From a virus, in the UHGV virus genome UHGV-0046264: a stretch of DNA of 38,853 bases; one strand, given 5' to 3'. A program made the translations under genes and the position numbers. The first letter of the stretch is position 1; each line of letters opens with the position of its first letter. The notes beneath the pieces were generated by a model. That model saw only the letters and a program-made list of their open reading frames with translations. It did no database searches and was not told where the DNA came from. This document shows, piece by piece, positions 17,405 through 26,380 of this stretch.

Positions 17405-17943
17405 TTTACCCAACGAATACAGGAAAAAGCGGAGAACACCTTCGTCTCGCCACGCTGGAAAGTGTCTGGATTCAGGGCAAACTGCGTATGTGGGGGCGCT
17501 GGTCGTATATTGGCGGTGGCAGGTCAGGAAATATGTTCAATCAGTTGTTGGCATCCAAAAAATTGACGAAAACAGCCATCAATGAAGCCCTGCGCAGAAT
17601 GAAAAAAGCGGGAATAGAGAAAGCTGAGCTGGAAGCGTTTTTGCGAGAGATGATCAACGGCAAGCAAAAGAGCTGGCTGGCGCATTGTACTGATGCAGAG
17701 GCGTTATGTATTGATCGAGTCATAAGTGAGGTGCTGGCAGAGCATCCTGGATTGATTAGTGTCCTCCGGCAACGGTATGAAGGACGGGGGATGACTAAGC
17801 GCAAAATGGCTGAATTGCTAAATGATGCACATCCTGAGTGGTGTTTTAGCACATGCGAAAAGCGAATTGCTAATTGGTTGGCTGTTGCTGAGTATGCCCT
17901 ATATATTCCCATGCGAGAATCATTTGCTCAAAAAATAGCTTGA
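17401..17943 (+). CDS. Putative late-gene antiterminator Q-like protein, 180 aa, GTG start
   Basis: AAGGAGG 7 nt before the GTG; GTGA overlap with the DUF1364 stop; lies directly upstream of a short leader ending in an intrinsic terminator and then the lysis cassette. Assigned by position, not by sequence recognition. Confidence 0.5.
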   Translation: MIYPTNTGKSGEHLRLATLESVWIQGKLRMWGRWSYIGGGRSGNMFNQLLASKKLTKTAINEALRRMKKAGIEKAELEAFLREMINGKQKSWLAHCTDAEALCIDRVISEVLAEHPGLISVLRQRYEGRGMTKRKMAELLNDAHPEWCFSTCEKRIANWLAVAEYALYIPMRESFAQKIA

Positions 17944-18026
17944 TTTTTTACGCATAAACTGCTTCAATTCCGGTATGCTTCGCAAAGCTGTATCGCGAGG
18001 CGAACCAAGCGCATGAACTTTACCAG
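17944..18026 (+). promoter_or_regulatory. Predicted late promoter and qut-like region (PR' analogue)
   Basis: Located between the Q-like gene and a tR'-like terminator; no confident -35/-10 hexamers assigned. Confidence 0.3.
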
Positions 18027-20364: not shown

Positions 20365-20501
20365 AATCTTAACTACAATATGATTCATTTTGATGATTGT
20401 TTCATAAGGAACAGTGAAGTAAGATCTAAGAGGAGTTAAATTTTATACAGTATAATCATAATATTGCAGCAAGGTGGTTATAATTGAAAGAATATTTAGA
20501 T

Positions 20502-21959
20502 ATGAATACATCTCATGTAAGAGTTGTTACTCATATGTGTGGGTTCCTGGTTTGGCTCTATAGTCTTTCAATGTTGCCACCAATGGTTGTAGCATTGTTT
20601 TATAAAGAAAAAAGCCTGTTCGTTTTCTTTATAACTTTCGTTATATTTTTTTGCATTGGTGGCGGAGCGTGGTATACAACTAAGAAATCTGGCATTCAAT
20701 TACGTACCCGTGATGGGTTTATTATAATTGTAATGTTTTGGATTTTGTTTTCTGTTATTAGTGCATTCCCTTTATGGATTGACTCAGAACTTAATTTAAC
20801 GTTCATTGATGCTCTGTTTGAAGGGGTTTCTGGAATAACAACAACAGGAGCAACTGTAATTGATGATGTTAGTTCATTACCTCGGGCATATTTGTACTAT
20901 CGGTCACAGTTAAATTTTATAGGTGGTTTAGGAGTTATTGTTCTGGCGGTTGCTGTATTGCCATTATTGGGTATTGGTGGTGCAAAGCTTTATCAGTCAG
21001 AAATGCCGGGGCCATTTAAGGATGACAAACTCACTCCCCGCCTGGCCGATACGTCACGGACACTGTGGATAACTTATTCTTTATTAGGTATTGCTTGTAT
21101 TGTCTGTTATAGACTTGCAGGAATGCCTTTGTTTGATGCTATTTGTCACGGGATTTCCACAGTTTCGCTTGGTGGTTTCTCAACTCATAGCGAGAGTATC
21201 GGATATTTTAATAACTATTTGGTTGAGCTGGTGGCTGGTTCTTTTTCCCTGCTATCGGCTTTCAACTTCACTCTTTGGTATATTGTTATTAGCAGGAAAA
21301 CGATAAAACCTTTAATCAGAGATATTGAACTTCGTTTCTTTCTGTTAATAGCCTTAGGGGTGATCATTGTTACCTCTTTCCAGGTCTGGCATATAGGTAT
21401 GTATGACTTGCATGGAAGTTTTATTCATTCGTTTTTTCTTGCCAGCTCCATGCTCACTGATAATGGTTTAGCTACGCAGGATTATGCAAGTTGGCCCACG
21501 CACACGATAGTGTTTTTGCTGTTGTCAAGTTTCTTTGGGGGATGTATAGGTTCAACTTGTGGTGGAATTAAGTCACTTCGATTTCTTATACTTTTCAAAC
21601 AAAGCAAACACGAGATAAATCAGCTTTCTCATCCCAGAGCGTTGTTGAGTGTAAATGTAGGAGGGAAGATAGTTACAGATCGTGTAATGAGGTCTGTATG
21701 GAGTTTCTTTTTTCTTTATACTCTCTTCACGGTGTTTTTTATACTGGTGTTAAATGGTATGGGATATGATTTTCTTACATCATTTGCAACAGTGGCTGCA
21801 TGTATTAATAATATGGGATTAGGTTTTGGGGCTACTGCATCGTCATTCGGAGTGCTTAATGACATTGCAAAATGTTTAATGTGCATAGCTATGATTCTTG
21901 GTCGCCTTGAAATTTATCCTGTTATTATATTGTTTTCAGGTTTTTTTTGGCGCTCCTAA
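20502..21959 (+). CDS. trkG: TrkG potassium uptake protein (TrkH family), 485 aa
   Basis: Polytopic membrane protein starting MNTSHVRVVTHMCGFLVWLYSL; AT-rich codon usage; known Rac moron located after the lysis genes. Confidence 0.9.
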   Translation: MNTSHVRVVTHMCGFLVWLYSLSMLPPMVVALFYKEKSLFVFFITFVIFFCIGGGAWYTTKKSGIQLRTRDGFIIIVMFWILFSVISAFPLWIDSELNLTFIDALFEGVSGITTTGATVIDDVSSLPRAYLYYRSQLNFIGGLGVIVLAVAVLPLLGIGGAKLYQSEMPGPFKDDKLTPRLADTSRTLWITYSLLGIACIVCYRLAGMPLFDAICHGISTVSLGGFSTHSESIGYFNNYLVELVAGSFSLLSAFNFTLWYIVISRKTIKPLIRDIELRFFLLIALGVIIVTSFQVWHIGMYDLHGSFIHSFFLASSMLTDNGLATQDYASWPTHTIVFLLLSSFFGGCIGSTCGGIKSLRFLILFKQSKHEINQLSHPRALLSVNVGGKIVTDRVMRSVWSFFFLYTLFTVFFILVLNGMGYDFLTSFATVAACINNMGLGFGATASSFGVLNDIAKCLMCIAMILGRLEIYPVIILFSGFFWRS

Positions 21960-22096: not shown

Positions 22097-22888
22097 ATGA
22101 GCGAGAAATTAAAGATAGTCTATCGCCCATTACAAGAATTGTCACCGTATGCGCACAACGCCAGGACGCACAGTACTGAGCAGGTGGCACAACTGGTAGA
22201 AAGTATTAAGCAATTCGGCTGGACTAATCCGGTGCTGATTGACGAAAAGGGCGAAATTATTGCGGGTCACGGTCGTGTTATGGCGGCTGAAATGCTCAAA
22301 ATGGATTCTGTTCCGGTCATTGTTCTGTCTGGCCTGACGGATGAGCAGAAAAAGGCGTACCGCCTGGCAGATAATCGCCTGCCGATGAATGCTGGCTGGG
22401 ATGAAGATCTGTTGCGGATGGAGCTGTCGGACCTAATCAATGCTGATTTTGATGTCTCCCTGACAGGCTTCATCCCGACAGAAATTGATGAACTGTTGAC
22501 GGATGTTTTGCCCGGTACAGGAAATGAGGAGGAGCCGTATACGACGAAAATTGATACGCCTGTTTATGAGCCGTCGGGCGGTAAACCGGATATCAGTGAA
22601 CTGTACGACGATACGAAAACTCAGGAGCTGATCAGCCGGATACGTTCGGCGTCCCTTGAGCCTGATATTGAGAAATTCCTCCTGTGTGCGGCAGAACGTC
22701 ACACGGTGTTTAATTTCAGCAGAATTGCGGACTATTACGCTCACGCCCCCTCTGAAATTCAGTGTTTTTTCGAGGAGTCGGCGCTGGTGATCATTGATTA
22801 TCAGCAGGCTATTGAAAATGGATTTGTCCGGATGACGCAGCGCATGGTGGAGATCATGCATGGTGGTGAGGAGGAGGAATATGCGTGA
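22097..22888 (+). CDS. ParB-like nuclease domain protein (YnaK-like N-terminus) with uncharacterised C-terminal domain, 263 aa
   Basis: N-terminal motifs LSPYAHNARTHS, IIAGHGR, YRLADNR characteristic of ParB N-terminal/sulfiredoxin-fold nuclease domains; C-terminal ~170 aa acidic and unrecognised. Confidence 0.7.
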   Translation: MSEKLKIVYRPLQELSPYAHNARTHSTEQVAQLVESIKQFGWTNPVLIDEKGEIIAGHGRVMAAEMLKMDSVPVIVLSGLTDEQKKAYRLADNRLPMNAGWDEDLLRMELSDLINADFDVSLTGFIPTEIDELLTDVLPGTGNEEEPYTTKIDTPVYEPSGGKPDISELYDDTKTQELISRIRSASLEPDIEKFLLCAAERHTVFNFSRIADYYAHAPSEIQCFFEESALVIIDYQQAIENGFVRMTQRMVEIMHGGEEEEYA

Positions 22889-23813
22889 TGATTTTTGCGC
22901 CTTTATTCTGACTCACGGGCGACCGGACAAAGTTCTGACTTACCGGACGTTGCGTCGTGCTGGCTATACCGGGAAAATTTTTATCGTTGTTGATGATGAA
23001 GATAAGACACGGCATCAGTACATGGCTGAATTTGGTGAACAGGTGCTGGTGTTTTCCAAAGCCGATATCGCCAGTCGTTTTGACGAAGCCGATAATTTCT
23101 GTGACCGCCGCTCAATTTTTTACGCCCGTAATGCCTGTTTCGACCTGGCAAAACTGGTCGGGTGTAAATACTTCATTCAGCTCGATGATGATTATCACGA
23201 GTTCCAGTTTCGGGTGGATCGCAACTATGACCAGGCCTATTTTCCGATAAGGAAACTGGATGCGATCCTTTCTGAAATGCTGGCGTACTACGAATCAATA
23301 CCTGCTCTTTCCATCGCTATGTCGCAGGGCGGGGATTTTCTTGGTGACAATGGCGGCCATGCTTCGTGGGTGAAACGCAAGGCAATGAACAGCTTTATCT
23401 GTTCGGTTGATCGACCGTTCTCATTCATGGGGCGCATTAACGAGGATGTGAATACGTACACGAATCTCGGTCGCTGTGGTGAATTGTTTATGACGATCGG
23501 TGCTGTCCAGTTAGGGCAGAAACAGACGCAGAAAAACAGCGGCGGAATGACCGAGCTGTATCTGGATTCCGGAACCTACGTTAAAAGTTTTTACTCCGTC
23601 ATGTATGCGCCGTCGTGCGTAAAAATCTCACTGATGGGTGCCAGCCATAAACGCATTCACCATCAGGTCACCTGGAACAACGCTGCAGTAAAAATCCTTC
23701 ACGAAAAATACAGGAAGAAGACACCCTGCATATCAATGGGGGTGACAAATGATTCCGTATTCGAAAGTCGAGTCTCTGGCAGCGTGCCGGATGACTGCAC
23801 AACAAATCGCTGA
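22881..23813 (+). CDS. Hypothetical protein with DxD-type motif (possible GT-A-like nucleotide-sugar transferase fold), 310 aa
   Basis: GAGGAGGAGGAA ribosome binding site before the ATG; ATGCGTGA overlap with the upstream ParB-like gene; motifs KIFIVVDDED and FIQLDDDYHEF. Fold assignment is inference only. Confidence 0.45.
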   Translation: MRDDFCAFILTHGRPDKVLTYRTLRRAGYTGKIFIVVDDEDKTRHQYMAEFGEQVLVFSKADIASRFDEADNFCDRRSIFYARNACFDLAKLVGCKYFIQLDDDYHEFQFRVDRNYDQAYFPIRKLDAILSEMLAYYESIPALSIAMSQGGDFLGDNGGHASWVKRKAMNSFICSVDRPFSFMGRINEDVNTYTNLGRCGELFMTIGAVQLGQKQTQKNSGGMTELYLDSGTYVKSFYSVMYAPSCVKISLMGASHKRIHHQVTWNNAAVKILHEKYRKKTPCISMGVTNDSVFESRVSGSVPDDCTTNR

Positions 23814-24000
23814 CGTTCTGGATGTTGATCTGAACCGACTGAAAGAAAATCGGGAAGCAATGACAGATTTTTATGCGGCCATCCGTAAGGGCAGAGCGAA
23901 AGGTGAAGCCGAGTTACGAGCGGCATTGTTTAAGCTTGCCAGAAAAGGGGATGCCTTTGCTCTGCGCGAACTACTCAGGGTGGATAAAAATCAGGACTAA
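23749..24000 (+). CDS. Small putative HTH DNA-binding protein upstream of terS, 83 aa (start uncertain)
   Basis: GGGGGTGA before the ATG; HTH-like segment MTAQQIADVLDVDLNRLK; overlaps the 3' end of the upstream gene. Confidence 0.45.
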   Translation: MIPYSKVESLAACRMTAQQIADVLDVDLNRLKENREAMTDFYAAIRKGRAKGEAELRAALFKLARKGDAFALRELLRVDKNQD

Positions 24001-24003
24001 CTG

Positions 24004-25098
24004 ATGAGCAGACCGGACTGGGGGGCGTTGCAGCAGGAGTATATTGCTGAATACACCCGCTCCGGTATATCTCCGGTGGCATGGTGTGAAGCAAGGGGAC
24101 TGAATTACGCAACAGCCCGTCGTTACATCAAAAAAACTCCGAAAAATGCGCAGACAGAAATGTGCAAAACTGCGCAAAAAAGTGCGCAGAAAAAATCTGC
24201 GCAGACTGCACAAAAGCGGAACGAAAAATCTCAGGAAAAAAAGCCAGTATTCGATGCGGGCCTGAATGAGGGCGACGCGGAGGAATTTTCGTTCTGTCCC
24301 GATGAATTCGGCATTTCTGACCAGCAGGCTAAGTTTGCGATGCTTGTTGCTCAGGGTAAAAAGCCGACAGAGGCGTACCGACTAGCCGGTTATGAGGGGC
24401 AAGGTGCGACAGCTAATAGCAACGCCAGTCGTATGCTTAGAAATGCCAGGGTTTTTCGCGCTATCAGCTACTTCCGCAATCAGTACCAGAAACGCTATAC
24501 CGCAGACCTGGATTTACTAGTGAGTCAGTTGATGGCCATTGTCCTGGCCGACCCCAATCAGCTTGCACAATTTCGCCGTGTTAACTGCCGTTATTGCTGG
24601 GGCGAGAATCATCTCTACCAGTGGCGCGATATAGCAGAATTCGACAAGGCAGCGGCGCAGGCTTCCAGAGATGGCAAACCCGAACCGGAATATGGAGGCC
24701 TCGGCTTTGTTGATAACGCCATACCCAATCCGGACTGCCCGAAGTGCTGCGGTGAGGGAACGGGACAGCTTTATATGGCTGATACCACTCTGCTTGATGG
24801 GGATGCGCGGCAATTATATGCAGGGGCAAAATTCGGAAAATTCGGCGTTGAGATCCTGCTGGAGGATAAGGCTGCCGCCCGGCGTGAATTGTTGCGTTTG
24901 CTTTCTGCTGGCGGGGCTTTATGTGCAGATAAGCGGCTACAGGAACTGGAAATTGAACGGCGCAGAATGGAAAACCAGAAGCTGCGCAAAGAGATCGAAA
25001 CGGTGGAAGATAATGAACATCCCCAGCCTGTGGCGATCAATATTAATGTGGTTGATGCCAGAGTAAGGAGTGATGAAGATGATCTCTCCGACGCTTAA
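24004..25098 (+). CDS. Terminase small subunit, 364 aa
   Basis: N-terminal HTH; Terminase_2-like segment (FAMLVAQGKKPTEAYRLAGYEG); immediately upstream of and overlapping the large subunit gene. Confidence 0.75.
   Translation: MSRPDWGALQQEYIAEYTRSGISPVAWCEARGLNYATARRYIKKTPKNAQTEMCKTAQKSAQKKSAQTAQKRNEKSQEKKPVFDAGLNEGDAEEFSFCPDEFGISDQQAKFAMLVAQGKKPTEAYRLAGYEGQGATANSNASRMLRNARVFRAISYFRNQYQKRYTADLDLLVSQLMAIVLADPNQLAQFRRVNCRYCWGENHLYQWRDIAEFDKAAAQASRDGKPEPEYGGLGFVDNAIPNPDCPKCCGEGTGQLYMADTTLLDGDARQLYAGAKFGKFGVEILLEDKAAARRELLRLLSAGGALCADKRLQELEIERRRMENQKLRKEIETVEDNEHPQPVAININVVDARVRSDEDDLSDA
24147..24211. repeat. Periodic TGCGCA palindrome array inside terS (candidate pac site)
   Basis: TGCGCA at 24147, 24171, 24183, 24198 with near-copies TGTGCA (24161) and TGCACA (24206), spaced about 12-24 bp; encodes the low-complexity AQK-rich protein segment. 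Confidence 0.4.
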
Positions 25099-26380
25099 TG
25101 TGCCTCAGGCGCGATTTCTTTCAATGCCCCATAAATTTAAAGCCTATATTGCTGGTTTTGGCTCGGGCAAAACATGGGTTGGGTGTGGCGGCATATGCAA
25201 GGGGATTTGGGAGCATCCAGGTATAAATCAGGGATATTTTGCGCCAACGTATCCCCAAATTCGCGATATTTTTTACCCTACAGTGGAAGAAGTTGCTGCT
25301 GACTGGGGATTGAACGTAAAAATTAATGAGGGAAATAAAGAGGTTCACTTTTATTACGGACGCCAGTATCGGGGAACCACTATCTGCAGATCGATGGAGA
25401 AGCCACAAACGATCGTCGGTTTCAAAATTGGTAATGCGTTGGTGGATGAACTGGACATTTTGCCGAAGGAAAAAGCCAGAACGGCGTGGCGCAAGATAAT
25501 TGCACGTATGCGTTATAAGATTGATGGACTTCGCAACGGTATTGACGTTACAACCACGCCGGAAGGATTCAAATTTGTCTACGAGCAGTTTGTTAAAGCC
25601 GTGCGTGAAAAAACAGAGCTGGCCTCACTGTATGGTCTGGTGCAGGCATCTACTTTCGATAATGAAAAGAACCTGCCAGCAGATTACATTCCTTCGCTTC
25701 TTGAATCATACCCTCCAGAGCTGATTAAAGCCTATCTTCGAGGACAGTTTACTAACCTGACAAGTGGTACTGTTTACCATCAGTTTGACCGGAAACTGAA
25801 TAATTGCGAAGAAGTGGAGCAGCCAGGGGAGCCGATTTATATTGGGATGGATTTTAACGTTGGAAAGATGGCGGGAATCGTCCATGTGCTGCGTTTGGGG
25901 CTTCCATGTGCGGTAACTGAAATCATCAATGCCTACGATACGCCGGATATGATCCGCATCATTAAAGAACGCTTCTGGCTGTATGATGGGAATGATTACC
26001 GGAAAGTGAGGGAAATTTATATTTATCCAGATGCTTCCGGGGATTCCAGAAAATCAAGTAACGCAAGTACGACGGATATAGCCCAGCTTAAGCAGGCTGG
26101 TTTTAACGTTGTGGTGAACAGCTCGAACCCGCCAGTAAAAGATCGCGTTAACTCAATGAATGCAATGTTCTGCAATGCCAATGGTGAGCGTCGCTATAAA
26201 GTTAATGTGAAGCGTTGCCCGTTATATGCCGAATCTCTGGAGCAACAGGTCTGGGATGAGAAGGGGGAGCCTGATAAAAAATCTGGCAATGATCACCCGA
26301 ATGATGCCGGAGGTTATTTCATCGTTAAGCAATTCCCTATTGTCAAACCGACCGGAAGAGTCACATCACTTCGGATTTAA
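25070..26380 (+). CDS. Terminase large subunit, 436 aa
   Basis: Walker A-like AGFGSGKTW near the N-terminus; Asp/Glu-rich C-terminal nuclease-like region; lies between terS and portal. Confidence 0.85.
   Translation: MMKMISPTLNVPQARFLSMPHKFKAYIAGFGSGKTWVGCGGICKGIWEHPGINQGYFAPTYPQIRDIFYPTVEEVAADWGLNVKINEGNKEVHFYYGRQYRGTTICRSMEKPQTIVGFKIGNALVDELDILPKEKARTAWRKIIARMRYKIDGLRNGIDVTTTPEGFKFVYEQFVKAVREKTELASLYGLVQASTFDNEKNLPADYIPSLLESYPPELIKAYLRGQFTNLTSGTVYHQFDRKLNNCEEVEQPGEPIYIGMDFNVGKMAGIVHVLRLGLPCAVTEIINAYDTPDMIRIIKERFWLYDGNDYRKVREIYIYPDASGDSRKSSNASTTDIAQLKQAGFNVVVNSSNPPVKDRVNSMNAMFCNANGERRYKVNVKRCPLYAESLEQQVWDEKGEPDKKSGNDHPNDAGGYFIVKQFPIVKPTGRVTSLRI

Follow-up and report, generated by a model that had tools for sequence, protein, structure and literature searches.

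How the small terminase subunit (TerS) of headful-packaging phages chooses the phage's own DNA is a long-standing open problem. We analyzed the virus genome UHGV-0046264 (38,853 nucleotides; 'the window' below means this whole stretch), which is an intact Rac-like lambdoid prophage of E. coli. Its terS gene (24004-25098, + strand, 364 codons) matches Pfam Terminase_2 at 35.1 bits (cut-off 26.1) and phrog_51, 'terminase small subunit', at 2.4e-76. Within the first quarter of this gene lies a dense array of TGCGCA hexamers, picked out in the original prediction as a periodic palindrome array and a candidate packaging initiation (pac) site. Here, we show that the array is conserved as DNA in related loci and that its motif changes together with a small N-terminal module of TerS, and on balance we lean towards reading it as a TerS recognition array that forms the specificity part of the pac site.

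The array consists of six slots, all of them within terS codons 48-70. Four hold an exact TGCGCA, namely slot 1 (24147-24152, read AAT GCG CAG, Asn-Ala-Gln), slot 3 (24171-24176), slot 4 (24183-24188, extended TGCGCAGA) and slot 5 (24198-24203, the centre of the 10-bp palindrome TCTGCGCAGA at 24196-24205). The other two carry one mismatch each: TGTGCA in slot 2 (24161-24166, read ATG TGC A, Met-Cys) and TGCACA in slot 6 (24207-24212), which is an exact TGCGCA in many relatives. The array therefore starts where it had been placed, at 24147, but ends at 24212 and not at 24211. An independent repeat finder recovered both the slot family and the palindrome of slot 5. The surrounding DNA (24130-24245) is A-rich, with A4-A7 runs alternating with the GC-rich hexamers and an extended consensus of AAAnC-TGCGCA-AAA; runs of A6-A7 flank the hexamers. 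Start-to-start spacing of the six slots is 14, 10, 12, 15 and 9 bp, and across nine related lineages it has a mode of 12 bp and a range of 7-30 bp. The array can thus be called periodic only approximately, and with a spacing of 9-15 bp the word is too strong. Helical phasing of the A-tracts was considered and rejected, given that their autocorrelation has its maximum at 12-13 bp, not 10.5.

TGCGCA shows no global excess in the window, with 18 exact copies for 15 expected. Under random placement of these 18 copies, four within 57 bp have P = 4.5e-5, and synonymous recoding of the window peptide gives a mean of 0.42 copies, with at least four in a fraction of 1e-4 of the trials. The original observation of four exact and two one-mismatch copies inside terS is confirmed. 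The window holds no second TGCGCA cluster of equal strength, which would have been a possible synapsis partner. Four one-mismatch hits lie within 90 bp at 17925-18008, which is chance level given 193 such hits window-wide.

Five of the six copies are read in the frame xxT GCG CAr (X-Ala-Gln) and slot 2 (24161) in another, and it is this X-Ala-Gln reading that produces the AQK-rich peptide KNAQTEMCKTAQKSAQKKSAQTAQK present in TerS. The original prediction had the causality right in stating that the repeats create this segment. The array is kept as DNA and the peptide is a by-product, as the same hexamers fall in other frames in relatives. From 84 close loci we obtained 22 distinct versions of the array region. 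Their consensus has six slots, each capable of an exact TGCGCA, and individual variants hold 4-6; slot 1 is intact in all 22 distinct E. coli-type variants, and most relatives have an exact TGCGCA in slot 2, with the reading ATG CGC A (Met-Arg). Across relatives the hexamer is translated as Ala-Gln, Met-Arg, Leu-Arg, Val-Arg or Cys-Ala. In terS of Serratia fonticola (53% identity at the protein level) five exact copies are spread over two frames, Klebsiella phage ST16-OXA48phi5.1 (core 40% identical) packs six into 64 bp and uses all three frames for them (Ala-Gln, Leu-Arg, Cys-Ala), and in lineage L177 the readings are Val-Arg, Ala-Gln and Cys-Ala. The length and frame of the encoded linker vary among relatives as well.

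To extend the recoding to other lineages, the peptide of each was held fixed and synonymous codons were redrawn from the usage of the same gene in 20,000 trials. The mean was 0.2-0.8 copies compared with 3-8 observed, and P was <= 5e-4 in 21 of 21 lineages tested; outside the class of the window the motif was defined as the most frequent 6-mer, which makes single P values optimistic, so that the consistency across lineages carries the weight. Motif density in the array is 20-100 times that of the remainder of each locus. In four database proteins (P0036, P0007, P0011 and P0177) the whole array is read in another frame, after which the original frame is regained. Genuine frameshifts with compensation, slippage-prone sites or homopolymer sequencing errors could each lie behind this and, whatever the cause, the peptide sequence of the array segment seems to matter little.

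The Terminase_2 profile and an SF6 G1P DNA-binding fold identify the protein as an SPP1/SF6-type small terminase. Its core helix-turn-helix (HTH) does not stand at the extreme N-terminus; it starts near residue 99, after a separate domain of residues 1-44 and a linker of about 50 residues. AlphaFold gave a predicted local distance difference test score (pLDDT) of 85 from an alignment of 96 sequences and 48 from a shallow alignment. In the deeper model the N-terminal domain, our proposed array reader (24004-24135, + strand, codons 1-44), has three helices (6-20, 24-31 and 35-38) at pLDDT 90-96. The Lys/Ala/Gln-rich linker whose DNA carries the array (24136-24288, + strand, codons 45-95) is predicted to be disordered, with ten-residue block means of 46-76 for residues 41-90 and 81 for residues 91-100, between two confident domains. 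The core (24289-25098, + strand) comprises the SF6/SPP1-type HTH, the oligomerisation region and a C-terminal tail. When N-domain profiles were compared, that of the window class matched that of the other classes with an hhalign probability of 83% (E 9e-6). One other class exceeds the Pfam HTH_50 cut-off, and others have sub-threshold matches to HTH_psq, HTH_28 and HTH_23. We take all of these N-domains to be variants of one small HTH domain, an assignment that for the window class is suggested by the structural model and the profile comparison. Three families, phrog_370, phrog_30708 and phrog_1711, match the N-terminal part alone; phrog_370 and phrog_1711 are small-terminase families that match only residues 1-86, which indicates that the module is also found on other TerS chassis.

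To compare the module between phages, loci were collected via the conserved TerS core (…VNCRYCWGENHLYQWRD…CPKCCGEG…) from IMG/VR (two scans), sequenced phages and cluster representatives. A one-genome-per-species scan yielded only four loci, and the diversity came instead from IMG/VR and the cluster representatives. Of the 26 N-domain lineages examined, 24 carry a type-specific motif of 6-8 bp in 3-8 copies with A-rich spacers, directly 3' of the N-domain DNA and within the DNA of the Lys-rich linker. TGCGCA is the motif of the window type, the Serratia and Klebsiella types, L124-L129 and L144, while Yersinia phage vB_YenM_29.18 has four copies of TGCGAA(T) plus TTCGCA, and L138 has TCGCGAA. 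The motifs of other N-domain types usually occur on both strands. The Erwinia type has three to four copies of GGGGCA followed by one to three of TGCCCC, and another has four to five copies of GGTACGCA, joined in five of six lineages by one inverted TGCGTACC. Further types have GGTTCGC twice and then GCGAAC three times, ACCGACC four times and then GGTCGGT four times, CCGTCC twice and then GGACGG four to five times, or TGGTAA four times with TTACCA twice. Where copies are inverted, one half of an array is translated into another peptide than the other half (for example, PTKPTKPTK and GRSGGRS), a further sign that it is the DNA that is conserved. In total, at least ten distinct motifs occur on one TerS chassis.

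The motif follows the N-domain and not the rest of the protein. From 'PDEFGISDQQ' onwards, the terS DNA of Actinobacillus phage vB_Apl-pPE4 is 93.6% identical to that of the window (core protein 93%). Its first ~95 codons are unrelated; they encode another N-terminal domain, and in the linker DNA behind it TGGAAA/TTTCCA occurs six times, with both strands represented. Similar N-domains have a common motif, and in two pairs a small change in helix 3 accompanies a one-base change in the motif: ATARRYIKK with TGCGCA versus STAKRYIKI with TGCGAA, and KTTLIDLARKRGW with CCGACC versus KSTLVDLAKKHCW with CCGTCC. The array is independent of the core HTH variant, TGCGCA being found with two of them, and its motif is independent of a short open reading frame (ORF) of 83 codons upstream of terS. 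The comparison with terS of related phages, proposed originally as a check, thus came out in favour of an element that is kept as DNA and whose motif changes with the N-domain module.

Two relatives show how the module can vary further. In the defective Rac-SA53 (L086, KU052037, 2412-2560) the N-domain is deleted, terS is a fusion and the end point of the deletion lies inside the array. Two of its five remaining slots are intact, compared with 5-6 in intact relatives at similar divergence, which we regard as anecdotal support for the pac reading. Illegitimate recombination and the exchange of modules may also be especially frequent at the array. Genes for heat-labile enterotoxin IIa lie just upstream in Rac-SA53. 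In L179, a GC-rich relative, three copies of GAGAAACC(A/T)T lie within 200 bp 5' of terS (613-812) and three more in the linker DNA (813-1100; one direct, two inverted), and in some lineages the array may accordingly reach beyond the coding region.

Repeats in a low-complexity linker could also be a neutral by-product of replication slippage, with a lineage-specific unit because the linker is co-inherited with the adjacent N-domain. Copy-number variants and deletions between copies in L069-L071, clear tandem units of 9-12 nt in L129 and L105, and the polymorphic slots and homopolymer runs are all in line with this. However, slippage generates whole-unit copies on the same strand and in the same frame, whereas in these arrays the motif is exact but the spacers differ, and the copies fall in two to three frames and on both strands. 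Neither does slippage account for the same hexamer in lineages with unalignable linkers (E. coli, Serratia, Klebsiella and metagenomic ones), nor for an array in nearly every lineage examined that has the N-domain. A plain low-complexity coding repeat is further opposed by the recoding result, as the copy count exceeds what the peptide needs in 21 lineages. We consider a neutral origin unlikely.

If the array is instead recognized by TerS, its place in the genome suggests a role in packaging. To our knowledge, the sole job of TerS is choosing DNA for packaging. Homology suggests a headful mode for this phage, the TerS core being 36% identical to that of F116/phiC725A and the large terminase (TerL) 40-51% identical to the TerLs of Salmonella and Escherichia siphoviruses. 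The terL gene (25070-26380, + strand) matches Pfam Terminase_6N (3.7e-33) and Terminase_6C and overlaps the 3' end of terS. F116 and phiC725A are headful phages with terminally redundant, circularly permuted DNA, and their read-coverage maximum begins at ~23,500, inside terS (23221-23808). A position inside or beside terS is usual for pac, as in P22, Sf6, SPP1 and others (PMC9611059), and in Gally, a prophage of E. coli LF82, a mapped coverage peak likewise lies in terS (PMC9928086). Gally was rejected as a relative, as its TerS is an unrelated 140-aa protein, and it serves only as a precedent. In the literature searched, no reports on virion ends or packaging of this phage were found. As regards the candidate pac site, the comparison ties a DNA-level element in terS to the recognition part of TerS, but that packaging starts there is something we infer.

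We propose the following mechanism. TerS would consist of an N-terminal HTH on a disordered, Lys-rich tether of ~50 residues, an SF6/SPP1-type core that presumably forms a ring, and a C-terminal tail matched to TerL, and the DNA of the tether would offer 4-6 TGCGCA sites ~12 bp apart with A-rich spacers. Several tethered N-domains of one TerS oligomer would each bind weakly to one hexamer, and the whole array would then be held with high avidity and specificity. The bound array would nucleate a TerS-TerL complex on phage concatemers, TerL would make its first cut nearby, and headful packaging would proceed toward terL and the head genes. Since the reader domain and its site are adjacent, they would be inherited or exchanged as one specificity cassette. 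More tentatively, the N-domain and array could represent a portable, self-contained 'packaging barcode' on one TerS chassis, with co-resident lambdoid prophages each packaging their own DNA only; this is possible, although we hold it to be doubtful. Nascent TerS may also load in cis on the genome that encodes it, because the ribosome completes the reader domain shortly before it comes to the site-bearing DNA.

Several observations weigh against the pac reading. Individual slots are polymorphic across the E. coli variants. The mapping of domain to motif is not one-to-one, given that TGCGCA arrays also accompany two other N-domain subtypes (L174 and L177), and in L178 and L181 the N-domain is present and the array absent. 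Most of the wider TerS family, which falls into 1,772 clusters at 50% identity, has a typical length of ~250 aa and takes in F116 and Bcep22, has no N-module, and hence the array is not a general requirement of this TerS family. The N-domain of the window class (class A) has no significant Pfam or PDB sequence match of its own, and a search of the PDB with N-domain sequence profiles returned nothing significant. In SPP1/SF6, binding by the isolated HTH owes little to the repeat boxes (PMC4737164). Finally, the co-variation of N-domain and motif could in part be mere physical linkage, as the reader and the site are adjacent.

By analogy, the proposed recognition array resembles in its working principle the P1 pacA hexamers, the SPP1 boxes and the R elements of lambda cosB, each of them a set of short sites for the TerS HTH within or beside the TerS gene. 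In the headful phage P1, for which pac repeats are documented, pac is a cluster of short, near-palindromic hexamers inside pacA, the gene of the terminase recognition subunit, and multiple weak sites are read together. The P1 hexamers (TGATCA/G) contain Dam sites, stand in two groups flanking the cut and need methylation as well as IHF/HU. The window resembles P1 in having a cluster of short, near-palindromic hexamers inside the gene of the recognition subunit, but differs in having no GATC in 24130-24245, one cluster only, an unrelated Terminase_2 TerS and a dedicated tethered HTH. P22-like phages exchange TerS recognition domains among themselves, and Leavitt et al. reportedly described in 2013 that the recognition domain and the site travel together. 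P22 and Sf6 also have pac inside terS (PMC9611059). The original statement on pac, namely that in many headful phages it is a repeat array within terS, is therefore right as to the location, which is common inside or beside terS, but too broad as to the repeats: the pac of P22 is one asymmetric 22-bp site without repeats (PMC9611059), read by a TerS of another fold with no extra tethered domain. Lambda cosB, like the proposed array, has several elements for the TerS HTH near the start of the TerS gene, and its specificity differs among related phages (PMC4669245). It nevertheless belongs to a cos system with fixed cohesive ends, in which the 16-bp R elements for gpNu1 lie outside the coding region and IHF is needed, whereas the window encodes a Terminase_6N/6C TerL and a Terminase_2 TerS, which are not lambda-type subunits.

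In SPP1, for which pac repeats are documented (PMC4737164), and in SF6 the sole HTH is that of the ring, whereas the TerS studied here has a second HTH on a disordered tether, with the repeats in the DNA of the tether and changing with that domain. The arrangement is thus that of an SPP1/SF6-family TerS with an added tethered reader that SPP1 and SF6 lack. In the searchable literature we found no description of this array or arrangement (Rac packaging, TGCGCA with terminase, TerS with repeats), with one likely relevant paper outside our reach. In the SPP1/SF6 model, weak, non-specific HTHs choose intrinsically bent DNA in which 5-7 A/T runs are broken by GC steps (PMC4737164). By the same principle, the array could be a pac signal that is read by shape, as a bendable, nucleosome-like segment of GC hexamers and A-tracts chosen by the ring of core HTHs, and the N-domain would do something else. 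The A4-A7 runs between the hexamers and the SF6 DNA-binding fold of the core are what such a signal would look like. Shape alone does not explain the complete change of motif on the 93%-identical core of pPE4, and the hexamer is kept across genera as an exact sequence, beyond its GC content. The A-tracts, spaced 12-13 bp apart, are out of helical phase. We therefore judge reading by shape alone to be rather improbable.

A regulatory role would retain binding of the array by the N-terminal HTH, for autoregulation of terS and terL or for late-gene timing. Autoregulators normally have HTHs whose repeat targets lie within or close to the regulator's own gene, and the pac region of SPP1 overlaps promoters of the terminase operon (PMC4737164). 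However, the N-domain is fused to a protein whose known job is the choice of DNA for packaging, and the array, which begins and ends 140-210 bp into the gene, is not in a promoter position. The locus showed no regulator-like arrangement, with autoregulation not directly examined. Overall, regulation seems to us about as improbable as reading by shape. Still less probable are hairpins formed by the palindromic or inverted copies in mRNA or single-stranded DNA, for example for ribosome pausing or as a nuclease mark. The array does fold better than shuffled sequences in the window (z -4.2), L171 (-3.6), L087 (-3.1) and L175 (-3.0), but the effect is weak or nil elsewhere (L004 -1.8, L005 -1.7, L176 -1.4, L137 0.0) and is expected from any set of inverted or palindromic repeats. 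In addition, the predicted pairings differ within one class, and it is the sequence itself that is kept, not the pairing through compensatory change.

Besides the reader module, two other parts of TerS deserve mention. Four cysteines in a CxxC...CxxC arrangement (C195, C198, C245 and C248; 24586-24750) are invariant in 96 diverse relatives, down to ~25% identity, a pattern suggestive of a zinc ribbon set into the oligomerisation region; apart from this case, zinc-binding TerS elements are a topic of the herpesvirus literature (PMC9611059). The C-terminal ~60 residues (24900-25098) exist in two unrelated versions among otherwise similar proteins, and the version in pPE4 is paired with a TerL that lacks detectable similarity to the TerL of the window. 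This fits a swappable TerL adaptor, in line with the known role of the TerS C-terminus in TerL binding (PMC4669245). TerS is thus a three-part mosaic of reader plus site, core and putative TerL adaptor.

The wider locus is that of a Rac-like prophage. Across positions 23700-25200 the window shows 100% identity to Escherichia phage vB_EcoS-666R9 as well as to further prophages, induced or predicted, and the identical phage records are said to stem from a genome survey of phages in clinical isolates. The annotated record contains recET, racC, kil, sieB, repressor/cro, replication genes, Q, lysis genes and trkG, followed by a ParB-like gene, a hypothetical gene, terS, terL, portal, a MuF-like gene, coat and tail genes; the portal is of the DUF4055 type. 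In the window the trkG-like potassium-uptake gene (20484-21959, phrog_1916) follows the lysis genes and precedes the packaging genes, the place it also has in K-12 Rac, and such a gene is ordinary for Rac-type prophages. The 83-codon ORF (23749-24000) has no Pfam match, ends 4 bp before terS and aligns with the middle of another small-terminase family (phrog_309, positions 145-218 of 319, 8e-23). Compared with the TerS of a phage whose TerL is related, it showed no detectable similarity. Homologues (45-81% identity) are found 5' of terS in several motif classes and are absent in others, and the ORF was rejected as the array reader, given that its presence or absence does not track motif class.

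Directly 5' of the packaging genes, the gene for a ParB-N protein (22097-22888; phrog_620, 1e-90), which we take to resemble K-12 ynaK by position, overlaps that of a homologue of TET-associated glycosyltransferases and HMC glucosyltransferases (22860-23813; PF20691 3.8e-35; phrog_842 7e-104). The pair may be a DNA-modification module of the Rac-like prophage. That the GCGC hexamers are targets of a modification or restriction-related activity, such as that of this pair (22097-23813), is scarcely credible even with the precedent of the P1 pac hexamers as Dam sites, given that the window has 145 GCGC sites, that other motif classes lack GCGC, and that none of the five proteins upstream of terS, the only ones scanned, has a TET/JBP or cytosine methyltransferase domain.

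According to a 2022 review, in vitro binding by pac-type TerS proteins is only weak and does not depend on sequence, and no current model explains base-specific recognition (PMC9611059). The TerS family described here matters because this recognition is unresolved and its matched reader and site pairs are directly testable. It offers a small reader domain, predicted to fold separately, with an obvious multi-copy target alongside, and nature supplies a dozen versions in which the two have changed in step while the protein is otherwise constant. Of 5,426 complete E. coli genomes, 891 carry the module, and at this frequency it bears on which prophages can mobilise which DNA by transduction. A possible use lies in orthogonal packaging signals for engineered particles. 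If the barcode reading is true, these phages would hold a natural set of orthogonal reader/site pairs, which could settle how pac-type small terminases read sequence.

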